Positions 4,461 through 60,125 of a stretch of DNA of 60,125 bases are shown one piece after another. The stretch spans positions 1 to 60,125 of the IMG/VR virus record IMGVR_UViG_3300043485_000026; one strand, given 5' to 3'. The translations under genes were made by a program, and so were the position numbers. Source of the stretch: a virus (lineage: Duplodnaviria; Caudoviricetes). Below the pieces are notes generated by a model, which saw only the letters and a list, made by a program, of their open reading frames with translations, was not told the DNA's origin and did not search any database. Every line of letters begins with the position of its first letter. The stretch's first letter is position 1.

Positions 4461-6191
4461 TCACCACGACGCATACGAACCCCTAGAAGCTGATTGCCGA
4501 TTCAGAACCCCGGCCCTGATCGCGTCCTGCCGCGCTCGCCAGGACAAGCAGCCGCACATCGCGAGATCGATCTTCAACTTAGACTTCTGCGATTCCTTCG
4601 AGATCAACCAGAGAAACCGGGCGCGCTGCTTCGCCTCGCCCGATTCCGATTCAGCGACATCCTCATCACGAATCTTCGTCGGACGCTTGATCGCATTCCC
4701 AACATGCTTGATGAACGCGGCATGAGCGGTCGCAGCCTCAGGTGTCTCATCCAACGGACCATGAGACAACGCTGGTCGCTGCTCCCCATCGGCCTGCGCA
4801 ATCACGCGCATAGCCGTCTTGTATTCCTTCAACGCGTAGCCCATCGCCATTTTGCGGTTCGTCCACCACTCAACGACTCGATCAGCGCCATACTGCCCGG
4901 CCCAGCGCGACAAATCCTCCCGATAGTGCGGTGGGTCAGCGTACATCCGCCACACAACCCAGAAATCGAAGGCGAACGCGACCGCTTCGTCAAGCTCATC
5001 GATCGGGACTTCCCAATCATCGTCATCCGACAAGTCTGGTGGGCGCTCCCATACCGCTACGACAACCTGATGCCCCGATTCAACGTCTGTTGCTACCAGG
5101 CCCGTTGAATCGAAGAAGAGGGCGCCATCAAACCCGAGCGTGACCGTTCGCCCAGCCTCGATGCCGTAGGTCGTCGCCAAGGCGGCAAACACCTCAACAT
5201 CGAATGCCTTGCCGCCACCCGCAACAGCACGGTTGCCAAAGAATCGCTCGGCCTGTGTTGGATCGGTCTCAAGTAGTTCGGCGGCCTCAGCCTCAATGGC
5301 ATCTAAGTCCACCCAGGGGCAACCCTCATACACCCGACGATGAATCTTGCGACGCTCAGCCTTGTTCGTATACGACAAGCTCGGCGGCGACTCGGGATGA
5401 TGGCGAAAGATATCCAAGCGCTGCGACTCAGCCGTGCGTTGCGCGACCGAATGCTCAGCCGGATCCCACGCATTCGTGGTTTCCTCCGCACGACCACCCA
5501 TCCCAGCCAACCCGCGACGCTGAGTCTCCGCAACCCGAATCATGCCGCCCTGCGCCGTCCAAATCCCCGTCTCATCCTGCGGACAGAACGTCACACGCTG
5601 CCCAAGGCGGGAACGCGCGCTCGACGTGACCACATCGATACGACCCTTGTTCGGCAGACGGATGAACTCCTCGCCCGTCTTCGGGATCAGGTCATGCAAC
5701 GGACCATCATCGATCATTGGCCGCAACGCGTCATAGATGTTGTCCGTCTGTTCCTCTGACGTAGCCGTGATCTGGATAAGCGGCGTCGGCCACGCCTGGC
5801 CCATCGCCTCACCGGGCTCATACTCGTAGACCCAACCACAACCACAGCCATGATCGCGACAATCCCAGAGTTCGCCACCCACGGCCCAACCAGCAAACAA
5901 CGCTGGCCCAACACCCTCAACGCAAACATGTGCCGCCGTATACGGGGCTTTACCAGCCTTCTGAGGAAGCACGACCTGCGAACGGCGATAAAAGAACGCC
6001 GGGGCGAGCTGCCCCACACGTGCCGAAGGTCGCACGCGGTAGAAATTCAGCAGCGACCATAACTGCCAATCCACAAGCTTGAACGGATCGCCCTTCAAAA
6101 AACCATCCGGGACAATGCAATGAGCAGAAACCCAATCGGCTGCGACAAACAGCGTCGGAAAGTCGATCAGGTAGTCGCTACGGTGCGCCAC
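4461..6191 (-). CDS. terL: Terminase large subunit
   Basis: Walker A-like PQKAGK, ATSEEQT, Walker B-like QDETG, TTNA; nuclease domain LGFDG..FDST, ADPP, KIDLAM. Confidence 0.95.
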   Translation of the reverse strand: MAHRSDYLIDFPTLFVAADWVSAHCIVPDGFLKGDPFKLVDWQLWSLLNFYRVRPSARVGQLAPAFFYRRSQVVLPQKAGKAPYTAAHVCVEGVGPALFAGWAVGGELWDCRDHGCGCGWVYEYEPGEAMGQAWPTPLIQITATSEEQTDNIYDALRPMIDDGPLHDLIPKTGEEFIRLPNKGRIDVVTSSARSRLGQRVTFCPQDETGIWTAQGGMIRVAETQRRGLAGMGGRAEETTNAWDPAEHSVAQRTAESQRLDIFRHHPESPPSLSYTNKAERRKIHRRVYEGCPWVDLDAIEAEAAELLETDPTQAERFFGNRAVAGGGKAFDVEVFAALATTYGIEAGRTVTLGFDGALFFDSTGLVATDVESGHQVVVAVWERPPDLSDDDDWEVPIDELDEAVAFAFDFWVVWRMYADPPHYREDLSRWAGQYGADRVVEWWTNRKMAMGYALKEYKTAMRVIAQADGEQRPALSHGPLDETPEAATAHAAFIKHVGNAIKRPTKIRDEDVAESESGEAKQRARFLWLISKESQKSKLKIDLAMCGCLSWRARQDAIRAGVLNRQSASRGSYASW

Positions 6192-6645
6192 CGCTCACGA
6201 CCTTGAAACGGTCACGAGCAGACCCGCCCACAGAACCCCTGGATACTGTGCTGGGAACGGTTACGGGTGCATCCTCAGCGATCAGCCAACGATTACGAAG
6301 CAACCCCGGCAACGAAATCCCCAACGCCTCCTGCTGCTGACGAACAAGCGTTCTCGCCGCAACCGTCGCATTCAACTGCTCAGCCGTCGCAAACGACCGC
6401 ACATACATCGCGACCTCAGACTCCTGGCCATTACGCTCCCACATCACAGCCTGAGGACGACACCACTCCGCATCCCACAACACCCGCTCGCGCTCGGTCT
6501 GATCAGCCAACGGCCAACTAGGCACCGGACCCTCACGACCAGCAGCCGGCAACGTCGTCCAACCAGCATCATCCCGACGATCCCGACGCAAAGCATTCGG
6601 ATCCGGCGGCGGCCCCGAATGAGCCCTAGCACCACCCTTAGACAC
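6178..6645 (-). CDS. terS: Terminase small subunit
   Basis: GGAR.HSGPPPDPNALRR and LGISLPGLLRNRW motifs of actinophage TerS; overlaps the terL start. Confidence 0.85.
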   Translation of the reverse strand: MSKGGARAHSGPPPDPNALRRDRRDDAGWTTLPAAGREGPVPSWPLADQTERERVLWDAEWCRPQAVMWERNGQESEVAMYVRSFATAEQLNATVAARTLVRQQQEALGISLPGLLRNRWLIAEDAPVTVPSTVSRGSVGGSARDRFKVVSGGAP

Positions 6646-6753
6646 GCAAACCACCATCCAATCTCAGAGTTCGGAACCCGACTGGCCCCAGCATCGCAGT
6701 CCTCTCCGGTCCAGATCGGCAAAATCCGGTTGGGGCACGGCCCCCATAAAATT

Positions 6754-7449
6754 TCAGGCGGCGTAGAGCCGTCTGCGCATCTCGTGGTACGTGGTTGCCA
6801 CTGGGATCCATGGCAGTGCTTCTAGGAGCGTTAGCGAGCCTTTGAGGCTGTTGCAGGTGCGGCAGGCAGCGGTGCGGTTAACCCAGTCGTCTTGGCCGCC
6901 GTGTAGTCGCGGATCTATGTGGTCTAACGCTTGGCATGCGTTACCGCAGTAGGCGCATGGGTCTTTCCGTAGCGTTCGATTGTAGGCCCACTTGTCTCGC
7001 GTGGTGACTGGTCCGAAGTACTGGTTGAGGGTCGCGAGGGCACAGTACTCTCGCCACGCCCAGATAGCTGCTTCGTTCCGGGGGCCTATGACAGCTAGAC
7101 GGCTGCGTTGGCTGAGCGCTTTTGCTTGCGTCTGCGCGACATGCCATGCGATCTTGCAGGAGGCACCGCAGAACTTGGATGCGTGGGCTGAGACGCCATC
7201 CTCGCCGACTACGCATGCCTTGCTGCATTGAGCGCAGTTGAATGCTTCGATGATTGGCGCGTCGAGAGGGATCGTTGCGATGCCGTCTCGTGTGCGTTGA
7301 ACGTGGTTGCTTGCTCGTTTGGCGCATCGGCTGCGGGCTTGACGATTGCCGGCTGAGTGACGTTGGGCGTCTGTTGGCGGGCAGTAGGTTTGGTTGGCTG
7401 TGGCTGGCGTGAAGGTGTTGCCGCACGTTGGGCAGGTACGCTCTTGCAT
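6754..7449 (-). CDS. HNH endonuclease with N-terminal Zn-finger repeats
   Basis: CAYCG...DHIDP...GG.D..VN...AC..CN..KG, plus extra CxxC clusters. Confidence 0.88.
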   Translation of the reverse strand: MQERTCPTCGNTFTPATANQTYCPPTDAQRHSAGNRQARSRCAKRASNHVQRTRDGIATIPLDAPIIEAFNCAQCSKACVVGEDGVSAHASKFCGASCKIAWHVAQTQAKALSQRSRLAVIGPRNEAAIWAWREYCALATLNQYFGPVTTRDKWAYNRTLRKDPCAYCGNACQALDHIDPRLHGGQDDWVNRTAACRTCNSLKGSLTLLEALPWIPVATTYHEMRRRLYAA

Positions 7450-7508
7450 GTTGGACCTCTCGTGTAGGTCTGGCCTGACCCTCGGCGATTAGTAGTCGCG
7501 CGAGGGTC
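7450..7508 (+). promoter_or_regulatory. HNH-leader two-hairpin element, copy 1 (candidate antisense RNA)
   Basis: 9-bp stem with 7-nt loop, 2-nt linker, then a bulged hairpin; same geometry as 54898-54956. Confidence 0.7.
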
Positions 7509-7660
7509 GCTTACGTTTGGTGGGGCTTAGCCGATGCTATCGGCCGATATCAGCATTGCTAGCAGCGTCACGATGAGCACGGGTGCGGCGCGTCGTGGGC
7601 AGCCTGTGAGGATCAGCAAGAGGGTTGCTGCGAACACGAGCCAGAAGACCAGGCCCAAGC

Positions 7661-7855
7661 TCATCGGTTGCGTGCCATGGCTAAGAGATTAACGCCGCTG
7701 GTCTGCTCGTCTACTGCGACTACAGCGATGGGCCGCGTCCGTTCGACTCCCCAGCCGTCAACGCAGGCTACGTCGTATTGGACGCGCTTCCATGGCAACG
7801 GGGTGCTCACGACACCATCTGCGTAGATGACGCGATACAAGGGCTCGCTGCTCAT
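7661..7855 (-). CDS. Hypothetical protein
   Basis: 64 aa (MSSEPLYRVIY...) in the - strand gene chain. Confidence 0.5.
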   Translation of the reverse strand: MSSEPLYRVIYADGVVSTPLPWKRVQYDVACVDGWGVERTRPIAVVAVDEQTSGVNLLAMARNR

Positions 7856-8640: not shown

Positions 8641-9144
8641 CTAAAGACTAATCCGCTTGGCACGCGGTGATTGCTGCTGAGCTTCTAGGCGCTTTGCCGC
8701 CTTTCTCGCCGCACGATCGCATCGAGCGTTCCATTCCTCACGAGTCTCTTTCCTGCGTTCTATGAGCAGCGGGATTTTGGCGTTCCTTCTGCGCTGCCAT
8801 TCCACCGCATCATGCACCTTTTGGCGTGCGGGCTCAGTACCGACCTGAGCGTCCCGTTCAGCTTGGCCGGATAGACGCTCCGCGATGTTGACGGCTGCCC
8901 TCTCAGCGTCGTAATAGAAGCCTTGGAGATCTAGTCCGATAACGCCCGCTCTCTCAAGGATATGCGCCTGCTGGTGGCAAGCCGCGCAAAGCGGGATTAG
9001 ATCCTCAAGCCGTGCTTTGAGCTTGGACCAAGCGCGCGAGCGTAGGTAGTGGTTGTAGCTGGCGTAGCCAAGTGCGCGAAGGTCAAGTTCGCGGACCAAC
9101 TGTCGCGTTTCCCGCTCGCTCCTGCTGTAGGGTTTGCGCTGCAC
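8641..9144 (-). CDS. Degenerate HNH-family protein (internal in-frame deletion)
   Basis: SYNHYLRS..W is joined directly to LEDLIPLC..CH; it lacks the CxxC/HH core present in paralog 18589-19035. Confidence 0.65.
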   Translation of the reverse strand: MQRKPYSRSERETRQLVRELDLRALGYASYNHYLRSRAWSKLKARLEDLIPLCAACHQQAHILERAGVIGLDLQGFYYDAERAAVNIAERLSGQAERDAQVGTEPARQKVHDAVEWQRRRNAKIPLLIERRKETREEWNARCDRAARKAAKRLEAQQQSPRAKRISL

Positions 9145-9195
9145 GGGAGTCTGATCCTCTCGTGCCAGGCCCGGGCGCTTGAACGCTGCGGGGCC
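9141..9195 (+). promoter_or_regulatory. HNH-leader two-hairpin element, copy 3 (divergent)
   Basis: GCACGGGAG-N7-CTCTCGTGC, CA linker, then a GGCCCGGGCG...CGCTGCGGGGCC hairpin. Confidence 0.55.
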
Positions 9196-10201: not shown

Positions 10202-10245
10202 TCACGACCCGCGGCAGCCTATTCCCCTTGGCTCGCGGGTCGTGA
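10202..10245. terminator. Long hairpin with C-rich loop
   Basis: 12-bp stem tcacgacccgcg/cgcgggtcgtga plus a 4-bp inner stem; intergenic. Confidence 0.55.
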
Positions 10246-18588: not shown

Positions 18589-19035
18589 TCATGACTGCCC
18601 TTCTACCCGTGCCGCACGCTCACGCCGTTTACGCCGTCGCTTCCGTTGCTCTGCCTTGTAGGCGTTGTCCTCACGCACGCGAGTAGCCATCGCCTTAGCG
18701 TGCTGCGGCGTCATCTCTGCGCTAGGTCGCCCGCCCAACCGCGTGATGTATGCCAGTTGACGGGCCGTGGCCGTCGCGTCATGGCGGTACTTGACTCGTA
18801 GCCTGTGCGCCTCGCCGTGGTGTTGACGACAGAGCGGCACCAGATCGGTGAGTTCCTCATGGCCTAGCCGCTCGTAGGTCCGGTGATGGAGGTCTACTCG
18901 TGCCTCGCCGCATACCACGCAGGCTTGTGGCATGGCGCTTGCTCGGTAGCGCTTCTTCACGTCACGCCAGTGGTCAGAGCGCAGGTAGGCCGCGTAGCTG
19001 GCTTTAGTCCAGCGCTCAGCCACGGGGAACGCCAC
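18589..19035 (-). CDS. HNH endonuclease
   Basis: Y..YLRS.HW, CVVCG, LHHRTYERLG.E..DL..LC..HH. Confidence 0.85.
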   Translation of the reverse strand: MAFPVAERWTKASYAAYLRSDHWRDVKKRYRASAMPQACVVCGEARVDLHHRTYERLGHEELTDLVPLCRQHHGEAHRLRVKYRHDATATARQLAYITRLGGRPSAEMTPQHAKAMATRVREDNAYKAEQRKRRRKRRERAARVEGQS

Positions 19036-19915: not shown

Positions 19916-20167
19916 TCATCGCTGCTGTTCCGTTCGCGACTCATCCTCCAGCCACGACAGCACCAGTCCACCCACCTCCCGTAACGCCGGAACCCCCGAC
20001 CCATGCGACCACTCAACCTGCAACCGATCCACCGCATGCAACAGGTCCGCGAGGCGTTCCCCATGCGATTCGGGAGCCTGATCCATGGTGTAGCGATCAG
20101 CGACAGCGGCTAGCTCGAAGAAGATAGTTGCGCGGCGCGCCGCGGTGTCCTCAAGATCGGTAGTCAT
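19916..20167 (-). CDS. Hypothetical protein
   Basis: 83 aa, ATGA overlaps, SD GAGG. Confidence 0.55.
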   Translation of the reverse strand: MTTDLEDTAARRATIFFELAAVADRYTMDQAPESHGERLADLLHAVDRLQVEWSHGSGVPALREVGGLVLSWLEDESRTEQQR

Positions 20168-20712
20168 GCTCCACCCTCGCTAGTAGCAGGATGCCAACCC
20201 CACGCGGTACCGAGCGCGATGCGATTAACAGCGGACCTGCTGATACGCGAACCGAGAGCAATAGAGCGCTGGGTTTCCCCAGCCTTGATCCGTCGCCTGA
20301 TCTCGTCCACCTCCGTGGGCATCAACTTCGCTGATGGCCGTGCCGCCAGTCCTTGGCGGCGACATGTCCCATGCTGCTTCTTATCCGCCTCGTTCTCAGA
20401 GTACGTTCCCCACGCGAGATTCAGAAGTGCATTGTTGAGTCTGTCGCCGTCCGAATGGCGACAGCAATGGCCGCTTTGTCGTGGACCAACGAACGCATTG
20501 AGCACCAGCGTATGGACACGCACGTTGCTCCGGCAACCATCCGCAGCAGCCAGCGTGAACGACAGGTAGCCCCGTACATTCAGGGACGGCCTTAGTAAGC
20601 GCGGTGGCGGTACCTGGTTCCGAGCACAGAACAGAGCGCGTAGCCGCCCCTGGTCGCTGACCTCATAGCGACCTTCGTAGCCGACGGCCGGAAGCCAACG
20701 CTCCGACCTCAC
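20164..20712 (-). CDS. NUMOD4-HNH homing endonuclease
   Basis: W..V.GYEG.YEVS..G, VH.LV..AFVG, H.DGD..NN...NL.W....N, C-terminal HTH. Confidence 0.92.
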   Translation of the reverse strand: MRSERWLPAVGYEGRYEVSDQGRLRALFCARNQVPPPRLLRPSLNVRGYLSFTLAAADGCRSNVRVHTLVLNAFVGPRQSGHCCRHSDGDRLNNALLNLAWGTYSENEADKKQHGTCRRQGLAARPSAKLMPTEVDEIRRRIKAGETQRSIALGSRISRSAVNRIALGTAWGWHPATSEGGA

Positions 20713-23983: not shown

Positions 23984-24493
23984 CTAGACATAACTACGAG
24001 AGGGAAGACGATCAGTCTCTGATGTGGGCATACGCCGTCGCCGATAATCCGCCGCCGCTGAGTTAGCCGCTTCCGCGGACTGGAACCTGCCTACATGATG
24101 GCTTCTTCCGTCGATCTTGACGGCCGCAACCCACAACTCACGGGACTTGTCCCAGTACACACCTCGATAGCCGGACGTGTTGTTGCTGTTCAACGCGCTG
24201 CGATTAGCCATGTTCTCGGGATGGCTCACTGCTCTGAGGTTCGCTCGACGGTTGTCGAGCTTGTCGCCGTTGACGTGATCGATCTCAACCGACCGGTCAC
24301 CGTGTGTCAACCCCAGAATCAAGCGATGCATCCGAGCGATCGTCTTGCGGCCAGCTTCGACCCGGATCCCACGCGACGGGTATCCATTCGCTGCTAGATG
24401 CCAGCGATAAGGCACAACCGCGTCTGCGTCCCCGTCGTCTACAAGCGCGTGCGCTACAACGACACCTCTCCTGTAGGTCGGCACCTCAAGCAT
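23984..24493 (-). CDS. HNH endonuclease with AP2 domain
   Basis: MHRLI, IDH.NGDKLDNRRANLR, NTSGYRGV.W...W.A...GRF...AA. Confidence 0.92.
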   Translation of the reverse strand: MLEVPTYRRGVVVAHALVDDGDADAVVPYRWHLAANGYPSRGIRVEAGRKTIARMHRLILGLTHGDRSVEIDHVNGDKLDNRRANLRAVSHPENMANRSALNSNNTSGYRGVYWDKSRELWVAAVKIDGRSHHVGRFQSAEAANSAAADYRRRRMPTSETDRLPSRSYV

Positions 24494-24842
24494 TCGACGT
24501 CCTCCGTTGACGTTCAGGTGTAGCCGCCTCCAAGGCAGCCTCAATCAACTCCGTAGCGTCAGGCATACGGGATAGCAACTCCCGCCGTAGCTTGGGCACA
24601 CTAGCCTGCACTCCGCTCGGGCGAGACCGACCCATGTCGTGTCCGTACCGTGTCCCATCGCTCCTAAGTGCATACCAGGAGTAATCGGCCCGATCCACCA
24701 ACCCTTCGGTTAGAAGTGCTCTAAGCGCCTCATCCACGCGAGCGGCCCTAGCCGTCACTCCCGCACGGACCTCTCTTGTGGTCGCCGGAGAATTCCCGCG
24801 CAGGAACTTGAGCGTCTGCTTGCGAATCTCGTCGTCGCTCAT
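24486..24842 (-). CDS. Winged-helix DNA-binding protein
   Basis: L.FL.....AT.REV......V..AL..L..EGLV pattern. Confidence 0.55.
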   Translation of the reverse strand: MSDDEIRKQTLKFLRGNSPATTREVRAGVTARAARVDEALRALLTEGLVDRADYSWYALRSDGTRYGHDMGRSRPSGVQASVPKLRRELLSRMPDATELIEAALEAATPERQRRTSNA

Positions 24843-35398: not shown

Positions 35399-35752
35399 GA
35401 GCGGGTATGGCCTCTGCCGATGTGGCTGCGGCCAACGAACGACCATATCGCCCAAGAACGATACGGCCGCGGGCTATATCAAGGGGCAGCCTCGCTCTTT
35501 CGTCAAGGGCCACTAACCATCGACCACCTCTGTCGTCGCCCATCTTGCATCAACCCGGATCATCTTGAGGTCGTTACGAAAGCCGAAAACACACGACGAG
35601 GGCGGGTAGCCAAACTAACAATCGAACAGGCGCGGGAGATACGTGCTCGACACCTAGCAGGCGAAGGCCCTAGTTCGCTGGGCCGAGCCTACGGCGTGAC
35701 CGCAAGCGCCATCAGCGCAATCGTTTCGGGCAAAAACTGGCGAGACGACTAG
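35391..35752 (+). pseudogene. HNH endonuclease pseudogene (deletion plus frameshift)
   Basis: N-part C.CGCG...G.P..FV.GH stops at 35516; C-part DH.C....C.NPDHL...EN plus HTH is in another frame; paralog of 54271-54897. Confidence 0.75.
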
Positions 35753-36619: not shown

Positions 36620-36940
36620 GCTTCCTTATGCAAGGGATCTGGCCACAGAGTAGCACTAACCTCCTGCCCGGGGACGACAGCGCGAGCACCGGGACTCATC
36701 GACACCCCAGACAATCCGTACGTGGGCCGCAAGGCCGGTAGACGGAGACAACGCCCGCAAAGGGCACCTGGCAAAGCACGACCTGGGCAGGTCTGAGTCT
36801 CCGGCTATTCCTCGAAAGGGGGTAGTACGCCCAAGCATGCAGACACTCGCACTGCCAAGGCCAACAGGCCAACCGCCTCGCTACTTAGTCCGTTAGAGAT
36901 GCAGTTCGAAGCCCTGAGGGGCGAGGCCAACAAGGCTTGA
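36620..36940 (+). ncRNA. Candidate structured, pseudoknotted ncRNA B
   Basis: Crossing helices 36663-72/36782-91 and 36689-98/36794-804; GCAA and GAAA tetraloop hairpins. Confidence 0.55.
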
Positions 36941-53536: not shown

Positions 53537-53967
53537 GCTCGATGCACCATGATCTCAGCCGTCAAGATATACCGCTCGCGTGCAGGCTCCATATCCGTGT
53601 CCGGGATTCGCGCATGCCCGTTGAACCGCACACGTGTGACAACCACGCCATCAGATGTGCTGCCCTGCATCGCTCTCAGGACGGCACGGGAAGTCGCGGC
53701 AACCGCGTACGCCTCCGCTTGTTGAGTCTGGTTCTTCGCGGCTGTTGAGCCCGCGTAACAGTCCAGTTGAAGCATCCCATCCAGTAGGTACTCAACGCCG
53801 GATACCGGGTCGTCGGGGAGATCGAGGAGCGTTACGCGAACCCACGGGCCAGTTGTGCTCTCAGGGATGCGCGGCCCGACACGAACCCCCAACCCCATGA
53901 GGTCGGGATGCTCGCGAAGCCACTTGGCGACCAGTGCCTCAAGGTTGGGTGTGAGGACAAGCGTCAT
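53533..53967 (-). CDS. Tail terminator protein
   Basis: E..V..WL, P.VRV, Q.DCYA, PD....RY motifs and position. Confidence 0.75.
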   Translation of the reverse strand: MTLVLTPNLEALVAKWLREHPDLMGLGVRVGPRIPESTTGPWVRVTLLDLPDDPVSGVEYLLDGMLQLDCYAGSTAAKNQTQQAEAYAVAATSRAVLRAMQGSTSDGVVVTRVRFNGHARIPDTDMEPARERYILTAEIMVHRA

Positions 53968-54311
53968 GAGCCCTCCTGATCCGACGTGGCCACTCGACGT
54001 AGCGTCGCCTCGATATGGCTAGCGACCATTGTGCGAGGGTTACGAGCCTCCCAAGGCGCTCCGGTGACCTCGAAGATCAGGCCATCAACGAGCACCCCGT
54101 CGCCCGTGTCGATCTCGGTGCCAGCGGGAAGGATCAGGAGCCAATCAGTTTGCGATAGCTGGCCCTGAGCTTCGTCGCGCTTCCGCTGCTGCAACTCTCC
54201 GACGGTTTCGATCAGAACCTCATCAGCTATCTCTCCGCCGAATTCGTCGATGGTTCCACCGGGAGCCCGTCTAACAATCGTCACAGTCCGATTGAGCAAC
54301 GCTGGTAGCAC
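53964..54311 (-). CDS. Head closure / head-tail joining protein
   Basis: V.I.R...D.FG, D.V.VDG..FEV.G.P, H.E..LR; ends ...QEGS. Confidence 0.8.
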
Positions 54312-54897
54312 GTTGTGCCCCCTTGCCGACGAGTTGGCTTATACGAGATTGGGATACTCCGAATACGGCCGCTAGCTGATACTGGGTCGTATTCCCAGTC
54401 TGGTAACGATGGCGTATGACCTCGACTTGCCCGTCTGAAAGTTTGCGGCGCCCGCCTACGCGCCCGCCTGATGCTCGCCCCTTAGCGTCTCTATCCGCCA
54501 TGTTGTCGGCATGCGTCCCAAGAAACAAATGATCCGGGTTGACGCACGGCGGATTGTCACAGCGATGACAAACCGACAAGCCTTCGGGAATCGGTCCCAT
54601 CCAAAGTTGATAGGCGAAGCGGTGTGCCGCAACCATTTTGTCGCCGCAACGCAACTGCCCGTATCGGGCTCTTGTCGTGCTCGTCCATATCCAGCACCCA
54701 GAATCATCGATGATGTACTTCTCGTGGAACCGCTCTACGGGTGATCCAACATGCAATTTGCGCGCGTGGGCCGAATTCACAAATCGCAGCGGCCGTCCCC
54801 TGACGTGACCAAAGCGCTTATCTGTCGTCTTCGCGAGCGGCGTAAGATCCCCGCAACCACATTCGCAATGCCCTACCTGCGGTGTACTCTCCAACAC
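54271..54897 (-). CDS. HNH homing endonuclease with C-terminal HTH
   Basis: CW.W...YG, AHR..Y...GPIP.G..V.H.CDNP.CVNP.HL..GT..DN..D..KGR. Confidence 0.92.
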
Positions 54898-54956
54898 GTC
54901 AGTCCTCCCGACCAGGATTGGCCAGACCCCAGGGCGTTTGCCGCGCCGCTGGGGTC
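54898..54956 (+). promoter_or_regulatory. HNH-leader two-hairpin element, copy 2
   Basis: Same 59-nt geometry as 7450-7508, with compensatory base changes. Confidence 0.7.
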
Positions 54957-55641
54957 AACTCATTATGCCATATGGCAGTGTTTTCGCCTCCTCAACCAGT
55001 GCTCTTATCGCGGGCGAGTTTCCTATTGCCTGGGCATACCGTTTGCGTAGATCCCATGACTCCCGTGAACCGCGGCTACGAGTCAAACGATCCTGCGGTG
55101 GATGCCACAGATGCAGCAGCGACGTTTTCACGCGATGCGGCGGTCCGTACAGAGTCCGTAGAGCAAAGCCCTGTGCTTCGTCCTCCGAGCCCCATCCCAG
55201 AAACCGGGGATCGATGGGGCACGCCTCGTAAACATCGCGACGAATCACAATCGCTCCGCCGCCCTCTACGCCCAAATACGCTCGCTCAGCAAGATGCGCC
55301 GGATCGTAGGAGCCCGTGGCCAGGAGCGCGTCTGTAGCGCCCCCAGACAAGCGTATGACGCCCCTGTGAGGGGTCGCCCAAGCATTCCCCGCTCGAATGT
55401 GCTCAACGGCTTCCGGTAGCCCGTCTGTCCACACGTCCGCGTCAATCAGGATCAGAGTCTCGGCTTGCGTCTGTGCGAGCGCATCATAGATCGCCGCCGC
55501 TTTGCACCATGGCCCAGTGTCGTGCAGGCCGATGATGACAGGCCAACCGTTTTGCGCATGCTTCGCGAGGACCCATGCGAGGGCACGCTTGCGGTGCGGG
55601 CAGTCAGTGGTTCGCCACGGGATTAGGACGGCAATGGACAA
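54955..55641 (-). CDS. Glycosyltransferase (GT-A fold, GT2/GT7-like)
   Basis: VLIPWR, DADV, D.RF.GWG.ED, HLWHP. Confidence 0.85.
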   Translation of the reverse strand: MSIAVLIPWRTTDCPHRKRALAWVLAKHAQNGWPVIIGLHDTGPWCKAAAIYDALAQTQAETLILIDADVWTDGLPEAVEHIRAGNAWATPHRGVIRLSGGATDALLATGSYDPAHLAERAYLGVEGGGAIVIRRDVYEACPIDPRFLGWGSEDEAQGFALRTLYGPPHRVKTSLLHLWHPPQDRLTRSRGSRESWDLRKRYAQAIGNSPAIRALVEEAKTLPYGIMS

Positions 55642-56426
55642 GCTACGGGTGCCGGATCGTAGATAAGCGAAGGATCGCTGGCGGGATCGGACGAATGGAA
55701 CCAGGTGTGGAACACGTCCCCTATTGCCGCAGGGCCGCCAGAATCCAGTAGATGACCGTAGTCGCGCCAATGCTTGCCTTGATCTTCGGGGAGGTCTGTA
55801 GCCGCGTATGCCGCAGAGCCATTGCGGACCTTGCGAACCATCTGCTCTGGAGATCTGAGCGCGAAATGCCTGAGTGTCAGCAAGTTCGAGACCTTCCCTG
55901 GCAGATCCCTACCAGGGAAGGAAGCACCATGATTACCCTGCTCGATTACCAAGCCCGGTAGGGCTCGTGCAGCCACCTTAGGCAGCGGGCCTGGATAGGA
56001 ACGGTGCCAGCCGATACGTCGTAGTGGGTTCGGGTCTTCAGGATCCATACTTGTCGGAACGTGATCCCATAGATCGGCTTCGGCGATCAAAACAGTAGGC
56101 GGGAGTGCATCAAGCGCATCCCTGATGCGCTGACCGCTGCGCGTAAACCATGCCTCATCTGCATCCCAGGGCACCACCCATGTCGCCCCCATATTCATTG
56201 CGTGCTCGGCTAGCGCGGACATTTTACGACTCTGCCAATAGCCGACCTCTAAGTCATCCACAATCGTAAGGCGGTCATCGAACCAGCCGCGAAGCAAGTT
56301 GCCAGTTCCATCTCGACTCTGGTTATCCGCGATCAGCACAGCATCAACCTGAGTCAGCATATGCGCAAGCGTAAATCCCAAGATGTCCAGTTCGTCACGC
56401 ACCATCGCAATCCCGAAGACGGTCAT
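55623..56426 (-). CDS. Glycosyltransferase family 2-like
   Basis: MVRDE.DI, DN.S.DGT, W...DADE, K, GNH, HF..RS.EQ..RK. Confidence 0.88.
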   Translation of the reverse strand: MTVFGIAMVRDELDILGFTLAHMLTQVDAVLIADNQSRDGTGNLLRGWFDDRLTIVDDLEVGYWQSRKMSALAEHAMNMGATWVVPWDADEAWFTRSGQRIRDALDALPPTVLIAEADLWDHVPTSMDPEDPNPLRRIGWHRSYPGPLPKVAARALPGLVIEQGNHGASFPGRDLPGKVSNLLTLRHFALRSPEQMVRKVRNGSAAYAATDLPEDQGKHWRDYGHLLDSGGPAAIGDVFHTWFHSSDPASDPSLIYDPAPVACPLPS

Positions 56427-59568: not shown

Positions 59569-60078
59569 CTAATCCGTCCAGTCATACACGGGCGGATCAT
59601 TGGGACCAGCCTCAATCAAACCCTGCACCGGGTTGTTCACAGCAAGCGTGTCCGCGATTGACTCAAGGCACGCCGAACCGCTCGTCATGCCAACCAACTG
59701 TCGGCGACACAAACGAATCTCAGCATCCGTCAACACCAGGCCATGCGCACCATCCGTGTAGCTGACGGAATGCTGATACTGCCCCAACTGCTCACTCTCA
59801 GACCGCGAACCAGTCGGGTTGTTCATCACGCGAATGACCGCGCTCAACGTCACAGCCCGCAACACAGCAGGCACCGGATCAAGTGACAGCGCCCATGCTG
59901 CATCGCGACCCATTGCCTCAATGATCAGACCCGACGCCAATGTCAGCAACAACGTTGCTTGCGCGGACTGAATCGCTGTGAGGTCATCGGCGCTTTCAAG
60001 GCCCAGCAGGATCGCAACGTCGTTCAGGGACGCGAACTCGCCCGCGACCGGATCATCGGGGACAACGACTGGGCTCAT
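59569..60078 (-). CDS. Head-tail adaptor (connector) protein
   Basis: FA...DV..L, LL..AS..I, V.R...NP.G..SE..G.Y..SY, L.LT..E...; follows the capsid gene across the origin. Confidence 0.85.
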   Translation of the reverse strand: MSPVVVPDDPVAGEFASLNDVAILLGLESADDLTAIQSAQATLLLTLASGLIIEAMGRDAAWALSLDPVPAVLRAVTLSAVIRVMNNPTGSRSESEQLGQYQHSVSYTDGAHGLVLTDAEIRLCRRQLVGMTSGSACLESIADTLAVNNPVQGLIEAGPNDPPVYDWTD

Positions 60079-60104
60079 GTGACCTCCCTTCCATCACGGC
60101 GGGG
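59979..60104. repeat. Terminal direct repeat (copy 2)
   Basis: Identical to 1-126. Confidence 0.95.
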
Positions 60105-60125
60105 GCCCGCGTGTGGCGGGCCCCC

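Follow-up and report, generated by a model that had tools for sequence, protein, structure and literature searches.

The window, i.e. the whole stretch of DNA analysed here, is a virus record of 60,125 nt from IMG/VR, with a GC content of 61% and with most of its genes on the minus strand. Two genes on that strand, HNH1 and HNH2, encode HNH nucleases supported by Pfam, and each is preceded by a two-hairpin element of 59 nt that touches the start codon (copy 1, 7450-7508; copy 2, 54898-54956). A preliminary description, made from the letters of the window alone, had drawn attention to these copies and to a looser third copy before a further HNH gene, and had proposed that they specify either a cis-antisense RNA or a structured leader that silences toxic nucleases and travels with mobile HNH cassettes. 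The components of copies 1 and 2 are as follows, where primed hairpins are those read on the strand opposite the gene, which is the plus strand of the window, and SD denotes the Shine-Dalgarno sequence.

6754..7449, minus strand: HNH1 gene, the target of copy 1 (231 aa, PF01844)
7437..7442, plus strand: predicted antisense -10 of copy 1, TACGCT, in codons 3-5 of HNH1 and 7 nt upstream of the first hairpin
7450, plus strand: predicted 5' end of the copy 1 antisense RNA
7450..7474, plus strand: copy 1 hairpin 2', GTTGGACCT / CTCGTGT / AGGTCTGGC, 9 bp with 3 G.U; holds the complement of the HNH1 SD, GAGAGG
7477..7508, plus strand: copy 1 hairpin 1', 8 bp plus 4 bp, bulged G at 7500, 7-nt loop TTAGTAG; proposed terminator
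7509-7520, plus strand: copy 1 tail after hairpin 1', GCTTACGTTTGG
54271..54897, minus strand: HNH2 gene (208 aa, HNH_3 (PF13392) with a sigma70_r4-like helix-turn-helix (HTH)), of the free-standing homing-endonuclease type
54885..54890, plus strand: predicted antisense -10 of copy 2, TACTCT, in codons 3-5 of HNH2 and 7 nt upstream of the first hairpin
54898..54922, plus strand: copy 2 hairpin 2', GTCAGTCCT / CCCGACC / AGGATTGGC, 9 bp with 2 G.U; holds the complement of the SD, GGGAGG
54925..54956, plus strand: copy 2 hairpin 1', GACCCCAG GGCG TTTGCCG CGCC G CTGGGGTC, bulged G at 54948

Both copies share a single layout. Read on the gene strand, hairpin 1 (GACCCnnG-C-4 bp-7 nt loop-4 bp-CnnGGGTC) is followed by (A/T)GGCCA, a short hairpin 2 that bears the SD, the letters AC and the start codon. 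Read on the plus strand, a 9-bp stem with a 7-nt loop is followed by a 2-nt linker and then by an 8-bp plus 4-bp stem with a single bulged G and a 7-nt loop, precisely as the preliminary description had it. The compensatory stem changes to which it pointed are present (GACCCTCG/CGAGGGTC in copy 1 versus GACCCCAG/CTGGGGTC in copy 2), and the first stem is indeed fully paired on the plus strand only, with three G.U pairs in copy 1 and two in copy 2. The arms of the corresponding hairpin 2 on the gene strand are GGCCAGACCT..AGGTCCAAC in copy 1 and GGCCAATCCT..AGGACTGAC in copy 2. Folding of the plus strand gave -34.2 kcal/mol (z -4.27) for copy 1 and -36.8 kcal/mol (z -4.78) for copy 2, with values of -27.0 kcal/mol (z -4.4) and -30.5 kcal/mol (z -1.41), respectively, for the gene strand.

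A covariance-model search and a wider search of genomes, which the preliminary description had put forward as checks, revealed a large family in actinobacterial phages and mobile elements. A pattern derived from copies 1 and 2 retrieved 32 stretches in viral contigs, about half of which are clear members, mostly before large serine recombinase (LSR) genes; non-LSR members among the 32 precede an HNH gene (L098), an EndoVII gene (L102) and a DDE transposase (L093). A stricter pattern recovered 60 genome contigs (58 from Streptomyces, one from Peterkaempfera and one a Gemmatimonadales metagenome-assembled genome), in which an LSR gene of about 650-710 aa immediately follows almost every element. 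A covariance model, R2, was built from 61 LSR-type members only, the window rows being excluded. Applied to the window, it scored 57.3 bits (E 1.5e-18) at copy 2 and 36.8 bits (E 4.6e-11) at copy 1, values that are partly owed to 17 search-pattern bases taken from these same copies. At E <= 0.001 the model matched 73 of 151 sampled Streptomyces genomes, at as many as nine places in one genome, and a single copy was located in Streptomyces phage Kromp, before gp32. A broader pattern, comprising hairpin 1 and TGGCC only, yielded at least 110 distinct places in 116 loci from viral contigs (the viral set). Blastn with one nuclease-type member matched 65 cultured phage records, from phages of Gordonia (57), Microbacterium (4), Rhodococcus (2) and Arthrobacter (2), and blastn of one recombinase-type element against phages returned no match. 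The element is carried also by three Streptomyces or Kitasatospora plasmids.

Without exception, members are positioned immediately at a gene's SD and start. The outer stem of hairpin 1 (GACCCCGG/CCGGGGTC) and TGGCC show strong sequence conservation across the family; the outer-stem columns are set by the search pattern and are therefore uninformative for covariation. The inner stem does covary: across the 68 rows of an alignment, 95.5% of cells pair as proposed, as opposed to 18-40% after sliding of the partner, and 11 pairs are changed on both sides, mainly in this stem. Copies 1 and 2 have the full set of family features, namely an outer stem of ~8 bp (GACCCCGG-like), a bulged C on the gene strand, the covarying 4-bp inner stem, a loop of 6-7 nt ending in AA, the (T)GGCC hinge, and a hairpin 2 that closes on GAC beside the start and is fully paired only if A.C is allowed. 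Rfam 15, comparison with which had also been proposed, gave no matching family, in that no gathering score was reached at the element in the window or in 16 member loci; the window returned EGFOA only, away from the element, and the 16 loci returned one tRNA or nothing. A scan of Rfam by E-value with the leader of one member gave only chance matches to unrelated families, far below threshold.

Comparison of family members revealed that the pairing of the start-proximal stem differs between the two strands. When this stem was read from the outer pair inward in 87 members, the non-Watson-Crick positions on the gene strand comprised 142 A.C and 16 G.U (107 and 5 in the 50 non-LSR members), other mismatches being rare over the first seven steps. 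An A.C on the gene strand is a G.U on the opposite strand, where the uninterrupted helix extends to 8.1 bp, versus an average of 4.2-5.2 bp for the A.C-interrupted gene strand. The same is seen in the independent viral set, whose pattern had not selected this region and for which counts here and below refer to the matches listed: a stem of at least 7 bp is present in 83 of 110 with A.C allowed and in two of 110 with G.U allowed. In 85 of 103 members the leader folds better when read on the opposite strand, with a mean of -3.76 kcal/mol versus -0.9 in dinucleotide shuffles, and the leader fold has a z of -3.29 on the opposite strand versus -2.37 on the gene strand. G.U pairing is restricted to the strand opposite the gene, and the A.C pattern in the gene-strand stem indicates that selection on the fold of the mRNA does not account for the mismatches. 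The stable mRNA-strand hairpin burying the SD, which would mark sequestration of the ribosome-binding site (RBS) of the T4 type, is lacking in the family.

A promoter-like signal is located at a fixed distance from the hairpin, within the coding sequence. Counted from the hairpin end, the gene strand has A at +8 in 98 of 103 members, T at +12 in 89 and A at +13 in 66, such that the opposite strand reads TAnnnT. At this offset the opposite strand has TAnnnT in 57 of 102 members and nAnnnT in 85, compared with at most 2 and 11 at the other 66 offsets (-19 to +47). GC-rich genes seldom have T at a third codon position. The signal persists in 50 members with unrelated downstream proteins (+8 A in 96%, +12 T in 92%, +13 A in 86%) and in the viral set, where this region too had escaped selection (72, 70 and 69 of 83 at +8, +12 and +13). 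In two members (L235 and L249) the start codon lies 3 nt later, yet the -10 signal keeps its place relative to the hairpin. A perfect TAnnnT stands 7 nt from the hairpin in copies 1 and 2, and a hexamer of the same type was present in all six of the annotated phage examples that were inspected. At the other end of the element, the 10 nt past hairpin 1' on the opposite strand contain at least four U in 67 of the 83 viral members, and the tail is 44% U in these members, versus 23% at matching positions in non-family pattern matches; in non-LSR chromosomal members it is 41% U and 32% C.

The preliminary description had allowed for a cis-antisense RNA or a structured leader, a proposal that is supported, and the confinement of G.U pairs to the opposite strand, the fixed -10 signal and the U-rich tail, three independent features, together cause the antisense version to be preferred. 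On balance it is probable, judging from the sequences, that each element constitutes a small gene whose product is a cis-encoded antisense RNA of ~60-70 nt, specified by the opposite strand (the plus strand in the window), which blocks the start of translation. The anatomy and conservation of the element are directly observed; synthesis of the RNA, its ends and its repressive action we infer as follows. A host-type -10 (TAnnnT), located within codons 3-5 of the target, would drive transcription from ~7 nt downstream, with the RNA starting at a conserved GUC, the complement of the GAC that precedes the start codon. Hairpin 2', with the anti-SD carried by its 5' arm and loop, would fold first, and the GC-rich, bulged hairpin 1' with its U/C-rich tail would then terminate the transcript. 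The resultant RNA, which would be wholly complementary to the mRNA leader, is predicted to pair with the SD region, probably loop-to-loop in the first instance; this would block binding of the 30S subunit, and may generate a substrate for RNase III or trigger cleavage of the duplex. Translation of the nuclease or recombinase would be kept low and neighbouring genes would be unaffected. Our judgement is evenly poised on a broader proposal, which is that the elements form a pan-actinobacterial family of ~65-nt cis-antisense RNAs that moves together with selfish DNA enzymes and acts on them as a portable expression governor, these being free-standing homing endonucleases from two or more nuclease superfamilies (His-Me finger HNH/EndoVII and T5orf172/GIY-YIG-like), carried by phages of Streptomyces, Gordonia, Rhodococcus, Microbacterium and Arthrobacter, and LSRs in Streptomyces chromosomes. 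From a promoter in codons 3-5 of whichever gene is served, each such RNA would insulate the host operon and hold the nuclease at a sub-toxic level.

Several observations weigh against the antisense interpretation. A housekeeping-sigma promoter would have a -35 hexamer 16-19 nt upstream of the -10, but the -35 region is only weakly enriched, with at least four of six matches in 21 of 87 members versus 4 of 87 in a shifted control, and a scan of copies 1 and 2 with E. coli-type consensus sequences revealed no two-hexamer promoter and no canonical terminator. The tails past hairpin 1' are only modestly U-rich in copies 1 and 2 and in the recombinase subgroup, and a stricter terminator rule (five T in eight) failed at both copies; GC-rich actinobacterial terminators with poor U tails are known. 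No discrete small RNA was seen for one Streptomyces member in unstranded contigs from soil metatranscriptomes. Sampled words from this 191-nt member are present at a fraction of 0.12-0.23 in 18 soil or sediment metatranscriptome runs, and contigs from four runs span the element and the 5' coding region, although DNA carry-over is possible; one of these contigs stops at the base of hairpin 1, and three continue into diverged flanks. G.T pairing would equally favour the opposite strand in the form of single-stranded DNA. Moreover, the patterns and models used to gather members had the window copies as their starting point, and many members are related to one another, so that the counts do not represent independent events. 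The association with HNH genes is loosened by the presence of 38 LSRs, together with DUF6415 and small proteins, among 87 downstream products, and by the element being found at only two of the five Pfam HNH genes of the window.

An alternative is that the element is a structured 5' leader of the mRNA as in T4, with hairpin 1 as a stabiliser or insulator, hairpin 2 presenting or sequestering the SD, and no antisense RNA. Every element does lie within the leader and has the SD located in either the loop or the 3' arm of hairpin 2, and in chromosomal members the gene strand has a TAnnnT peak 18-26 nt upstream of hairpin 1, which would place that hairpin near the 5' end of the mRNA. The gene strand also beats its shuffles (z -2.37), and RBS-sequestering hairpins control T4 endonuclease genes (PMC2988022). 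Nevertheless, such a leader is unlikely, since hairpin 2 is weak on the gene strand (a mean of 4.2 bp) with mismatches that are nearly all A.C, and since it leaves unexplained the presence of A(+8), T(+12) and A(+13) in unrelated coding sequences, tied to the hairpin and not to the start codon.

It is improbable that the opposite-strand promoter is real but acts by transcriptional interference or RNA polymerase occupancy, or serves a divergent gene, the short RNA itself being functionless. The -10 signal supports a promoter and is silent on its mode of action, and the Kromp element does lie in a divergent intergenic region. Against this, changes that preserve G.U pairs have kept the structure of the opposite-strand RNA itself, and a terminator-like hairpin follows directly. 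Upstream neighbours in 53 loci were co-directional in 14 cases and divergent in four, with no call in 35, and in the window the gene upstream of each copy is likewise co-directional, so that the promoter is unlikely to serve a divergent gene.

A site acting at the level of DNA, whether a palindromic operator, a site of recognition or processing by a nuclease or recombinase, or a single-stranded structure formed in replication or transfer, is very improbable. It would suit the strong sequence conservation of the outer stem (GACCCCGG/CCGGGGTC) and TGGCC, inverted repeats can covary when one protein binds both half-sites, and single-stranded DNA is stabilised by G.T pairs as well. Yet strand asymmetry is seen in the bulge, in the loop bias and in the tail, the fixed seat on the SD and start codon points to translation, and unrelated protein families are served, so that no single cognate protein fits. 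The more specific idea that the element is the attP core of a serine integrase was rejected: in 58 Streptomyces and two other chromosomal contigs an intact copy lies beside a recombinase gene, and hence the element is not split on integration. It is also very improbable that the upstream gene simply ends in an intercistronic terminator or processing hairpin of the usual kind, ahead of a normal RBS, with the likeness of the copies due to common descent of two inserted cassettes: although hairpin 1 in the window starts 18 nt past, or overlaps, the stop codon of the upstream open reading frame (ORF), and a third GACCC..GGGTC hairpin lies past a stop codon at 10206-10241, the gene strand has no U tract at copies 1 and 2, chromosomal members follow a promoter-like hexamer as opposed to a gene end, and hairpin 2, the A.C pattern and the signal within the coding sequence are left unexplained.

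Among systems already described, RNA-OUT of IS10/Tn10 is a stem-loop RNA of ~70 nt whose promoter lies just inside the gene of the mobile element and reads outward, and which limits translation of the transposase (RNA-IN). By analogy, the predicted RNA of the element may resemble RNA-OUT in being fully complementary to the 5' end of the mRNA, including the RBS, and in having as its target an enzyme that cuts or joins DNA. The element has no sequence or model similarity to RNA-OUT at Rfam gathering scores, however; it has two hairpins, the second of which is the proposed terminator, its predicted promoter is fixed in codons 3-5, and it is found on many unrelated genes (HNH, EndoVII, T5orf172, serine recombinases, DUF6415 and small proteins) and not on one transposase. 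The counter-transcribed RNAs (ctRNAs) of plasmids, such as CopA of R1 and the ctRNA families, and sar of phage P22 and c4 of P1, are likewise small structured cis-antisense RNAs. These have in common with the element bulged stems, recognition loops and, as proposed here, control of translation of an adjacent gene in mobile elements, but their targets are replication or antirepressor genes and the element matches no Rfam model; we know of no RNA of this type that serves as a portable module for nuclease genes. HEARO, the omega-RNA of IscB, is a long guide RNA encoded on the same strand upstream of IscB, and is also a structured RNA beside HNH-domain genes in mobile DNA. In contrast, the element is of about 60 nt, is antisense to the leader and has no Rfam match.

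A precedent in phages concerns homing endonuclease genes of the T4 family (I-TevI/II/III, segB and Aeh1 mobE), which have RBS-sequestering hairpins that form within the mRNA itself and that transcripts from a late promoter escape (PMC2988022). There too, a brake on translation is applied at the RNA level to phage homing endonuclease genes in long operons, by structure on the SD; in the element, by contrast, the hairpin on the mRNA strand is a weak one, and the conserved pairing is that of the other strand, which has its own promoter signal. A 50-bp motif of Gordonia phage Vardy is a leaderless-promoter motif (PMC9671010), and differs from the element, and the passages of PMC10448857 that discuss nuclease genes in phages make no mention of hairpins or antisense RNA. 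A search of the literature, which included literal sequence strings and did not extend to the supplementary tables of transcription start sites and antisense RNAs in Streptomyces transcriptome papers, found no description of the element. Cis-antisense control of mobile-element genes is thus already known, but the element family, the fixed position of the predicted promoter in the first codons and the attachment to many unrelated nuclease or recombinase genes appear undescribed.

What prevents free-standing homing endonucleases from harming the phage that carries them is known chiefly from T4, where mRNA hairpins and promoter choice are responsible. If the antisense interpretation is correct, actinobacterial phages would employ a different solution, in the form of a tiny antisense RNA gene that is fused to the start of the nuclease gene and moves with it. 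It would also account for a sequence that recurs in hundreds of sequenced genomes of the SEA-PHAGES type and in about half of the sampled Streptomyces genomes, and would imply that the first codons of unrelated proteins can accommodate a promoter signal at a constant position. Two practical consequences would be a rule for locating the true start codons of element-bearing genes, several of which appear misplaced in annotations, and a compact, host-portable translational brake for engineering of Streptomyces, where serine integrases are standard tools.

Examination of the genes downstream of the element qualified the earlier idea that it travels with mobile HNH cassettes: the link with mobile nucleases holds for 50 of 73 proteins listed from viral contigs, but the element is not specific to HNH genes. 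These 73 proteins, which had passed a filter demanding the hairpin end and the A/T signal, gave Pfam matches to Endonuclease_7 (15), HNH_3 (11), HNH (10), MUG113 (7), T5orf172 (5), GIY-YIG (2) and LAGLIDADG_3 (1), and iterative searches from five seeds assigned 40 to the His-Me finger (HNH/EndoVII) group and 10 to MUG113/T5orf172. In the sample of 87 proteins, drawn mainly from chromosomal and LSR-seeded members, there were 38 LSRs, six DUF6415 proteins (including Kromp gp32), three HATPase_c_2 proteins and six His-Me nucleases (PF01844 in four, HNH_3 in one and EndoVII in one, the two window genes included), the remainder being mostly without a Pfam family; small proteins are also among the products. 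The element accompanies selfish DNA enzymes generally and, in phages, chiefly genes of the homing-endonuclease type. A DUF4096 domain ('putative transposase of IS4/5 family') is present at the LSR C-terminus in 16 of the 87 scanned proteins (L082, L119, L152 and other Streptomyces loci), which is an unusual fusion for a serine integrase.

Four of the six annotated phage examples are labelled 'HNH endonuclease' (GAL1 gp80, Footloose gp16, Bauer gp40 and Vivi2 gp38), the other two being REQ2 gp37, an HTH protein beside an integrase, and Guacamole gp77, a hypothetical protein. The annotated starts of Microbacterium phage Footloose gp16 (L373), Arthrobacter phage Bauer gp40 (L374) and Gordonia phage Guacamole gp77 (L371) differ from the start that follows GAC, lying 39 nt farther downstream in the case of Footloose gp16 and 137 nt in that of Bauer gp40. 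These annotated starts look to be mis-called, because the element-adjacent starts yield typical HNH N-termini.

A variant of the family was noted in five loci (L191, L195, L204, L215 and L217), in which hairpin 1 is kept and the hinge and hairpin 2 are swapped for GGCAC and an AGGAG..CTCCT hairpin that hides the SD on the gene strand; the genes downstream of L191, L195 and L204 encode HTH, replication-initiator-like proteins of ~310 aa. Two further candidate features were discarded. An upstream leader peptide, starting from the CATGGGT before hairpin 1 in the recombinase subgroup, fell in frames 0, 1 and 2 in 16, 12 and 21 cases, with 15 lacking an ATG, and a closing CAUG/CAUG helix between the 5' flank and the start codon, which pairs in 86.8% of cells, was not supported, both sides being conserved motifs with few double changes.

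The claim that the element precedes three HNH genes stands for two. The third gene, at 8641-9144 (minus strand), has no Pfam match and only a weak PHROG HNH match (E 8.7e-5). Copy 3 (9142-9195) has the layout common to copies 1 and 2, but its covariance-model score of 10.4 bits (E 0.21) is not significant. The hairpin nearest the gene spans the SD and a GTG start, with the register shifted such that the stem takes in the start codon, and the outer stem of hairpin 1 is degenerate, at 5 bp. Its parts, as a possible degenerate member spanning 9128..9195 on the plus strand, are as follows.

9128-9133, plus strand: TAGGGT, followed by a spacer of 8 nt
9142-9164, plus strand: hairpin, followed by CCA
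9168-9195, plus strand: hairpin

The hairpin pattern occurs three times in the window, versus 0.07 expected. The third of these (10206-10241), GC-rich and of sequence GACCCGCG..CGCGGGTC, is a hairpin with the same outer-stem motif as the element, 7 nt past a stop codon on the minus strand; GGCCA, a second hairpin and a -10 signal are all absent from it, and it may be a remnant of the element or a plain terminator. A further match in the window, at 18948-19025 (minus strand; 12.5 bits, E 0.036), was dismissed as chance, the sequence being coding-like, with no hairpin 2 and no -10 signal.

The genes beside copies 1 and 2, and the HNH genes of the window without the element, are listed below.

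4461-6191: large terminase gene
6178-6657: gene next to HNH1, which lies directly upstream of it and of the large terminase gene; has a PHROG 'minor tail protein' match, and its position suggests the small terminase
7527..7664, minus strand: small hydrophobic ORF upstream of copy 1, 45 aa (MSLGLVFWLVFAATLLLILTGC...), unannotated, its stop codon preceding the element by 18 nt on the gene strand; may encode a small membrane protein
53964-54311: head-closure gene, neighbour of HNH2
54955-55770: glycosyltransferase-like ORF, neighbour of HNH2
20164-20712 (minus strand), 23984-24544 (minus strand) and 35420-35752 (plus strand): three further homing-endonuclease genes of the HNH_3 type, one with NUMOD4

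The last three bring the Pfam HNH-type genes of the window to five, and their upstream regions are short and ordinary. No relatives of the HNH1 protein were found in viral contigs, and those of HNH2 share at most 60% identity in the best segment and 46-49% in the top full-length matches.

With regard to the source genome, megablast of 6 kb of the window against a phage collection gave no match, and hence no close relative; the best relative of the large terminase is the Streptomyces phage Kromp protein, at 47.8% amino acid identity. The ends of the record are direct repeats (1-146 and 59979-60124, 97% identical), which indicate that the genome, although classed in the record as 'linear, 76% complete', is probably complete, being circularly closed or terminally redundant and of about 59,978 bp. 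A separate structured RNA, a full-length match to the EGFOA family (RF02955; 72.1 bits versus a gathering score of 37.7), is located at 36701-36804 on the plus strand.

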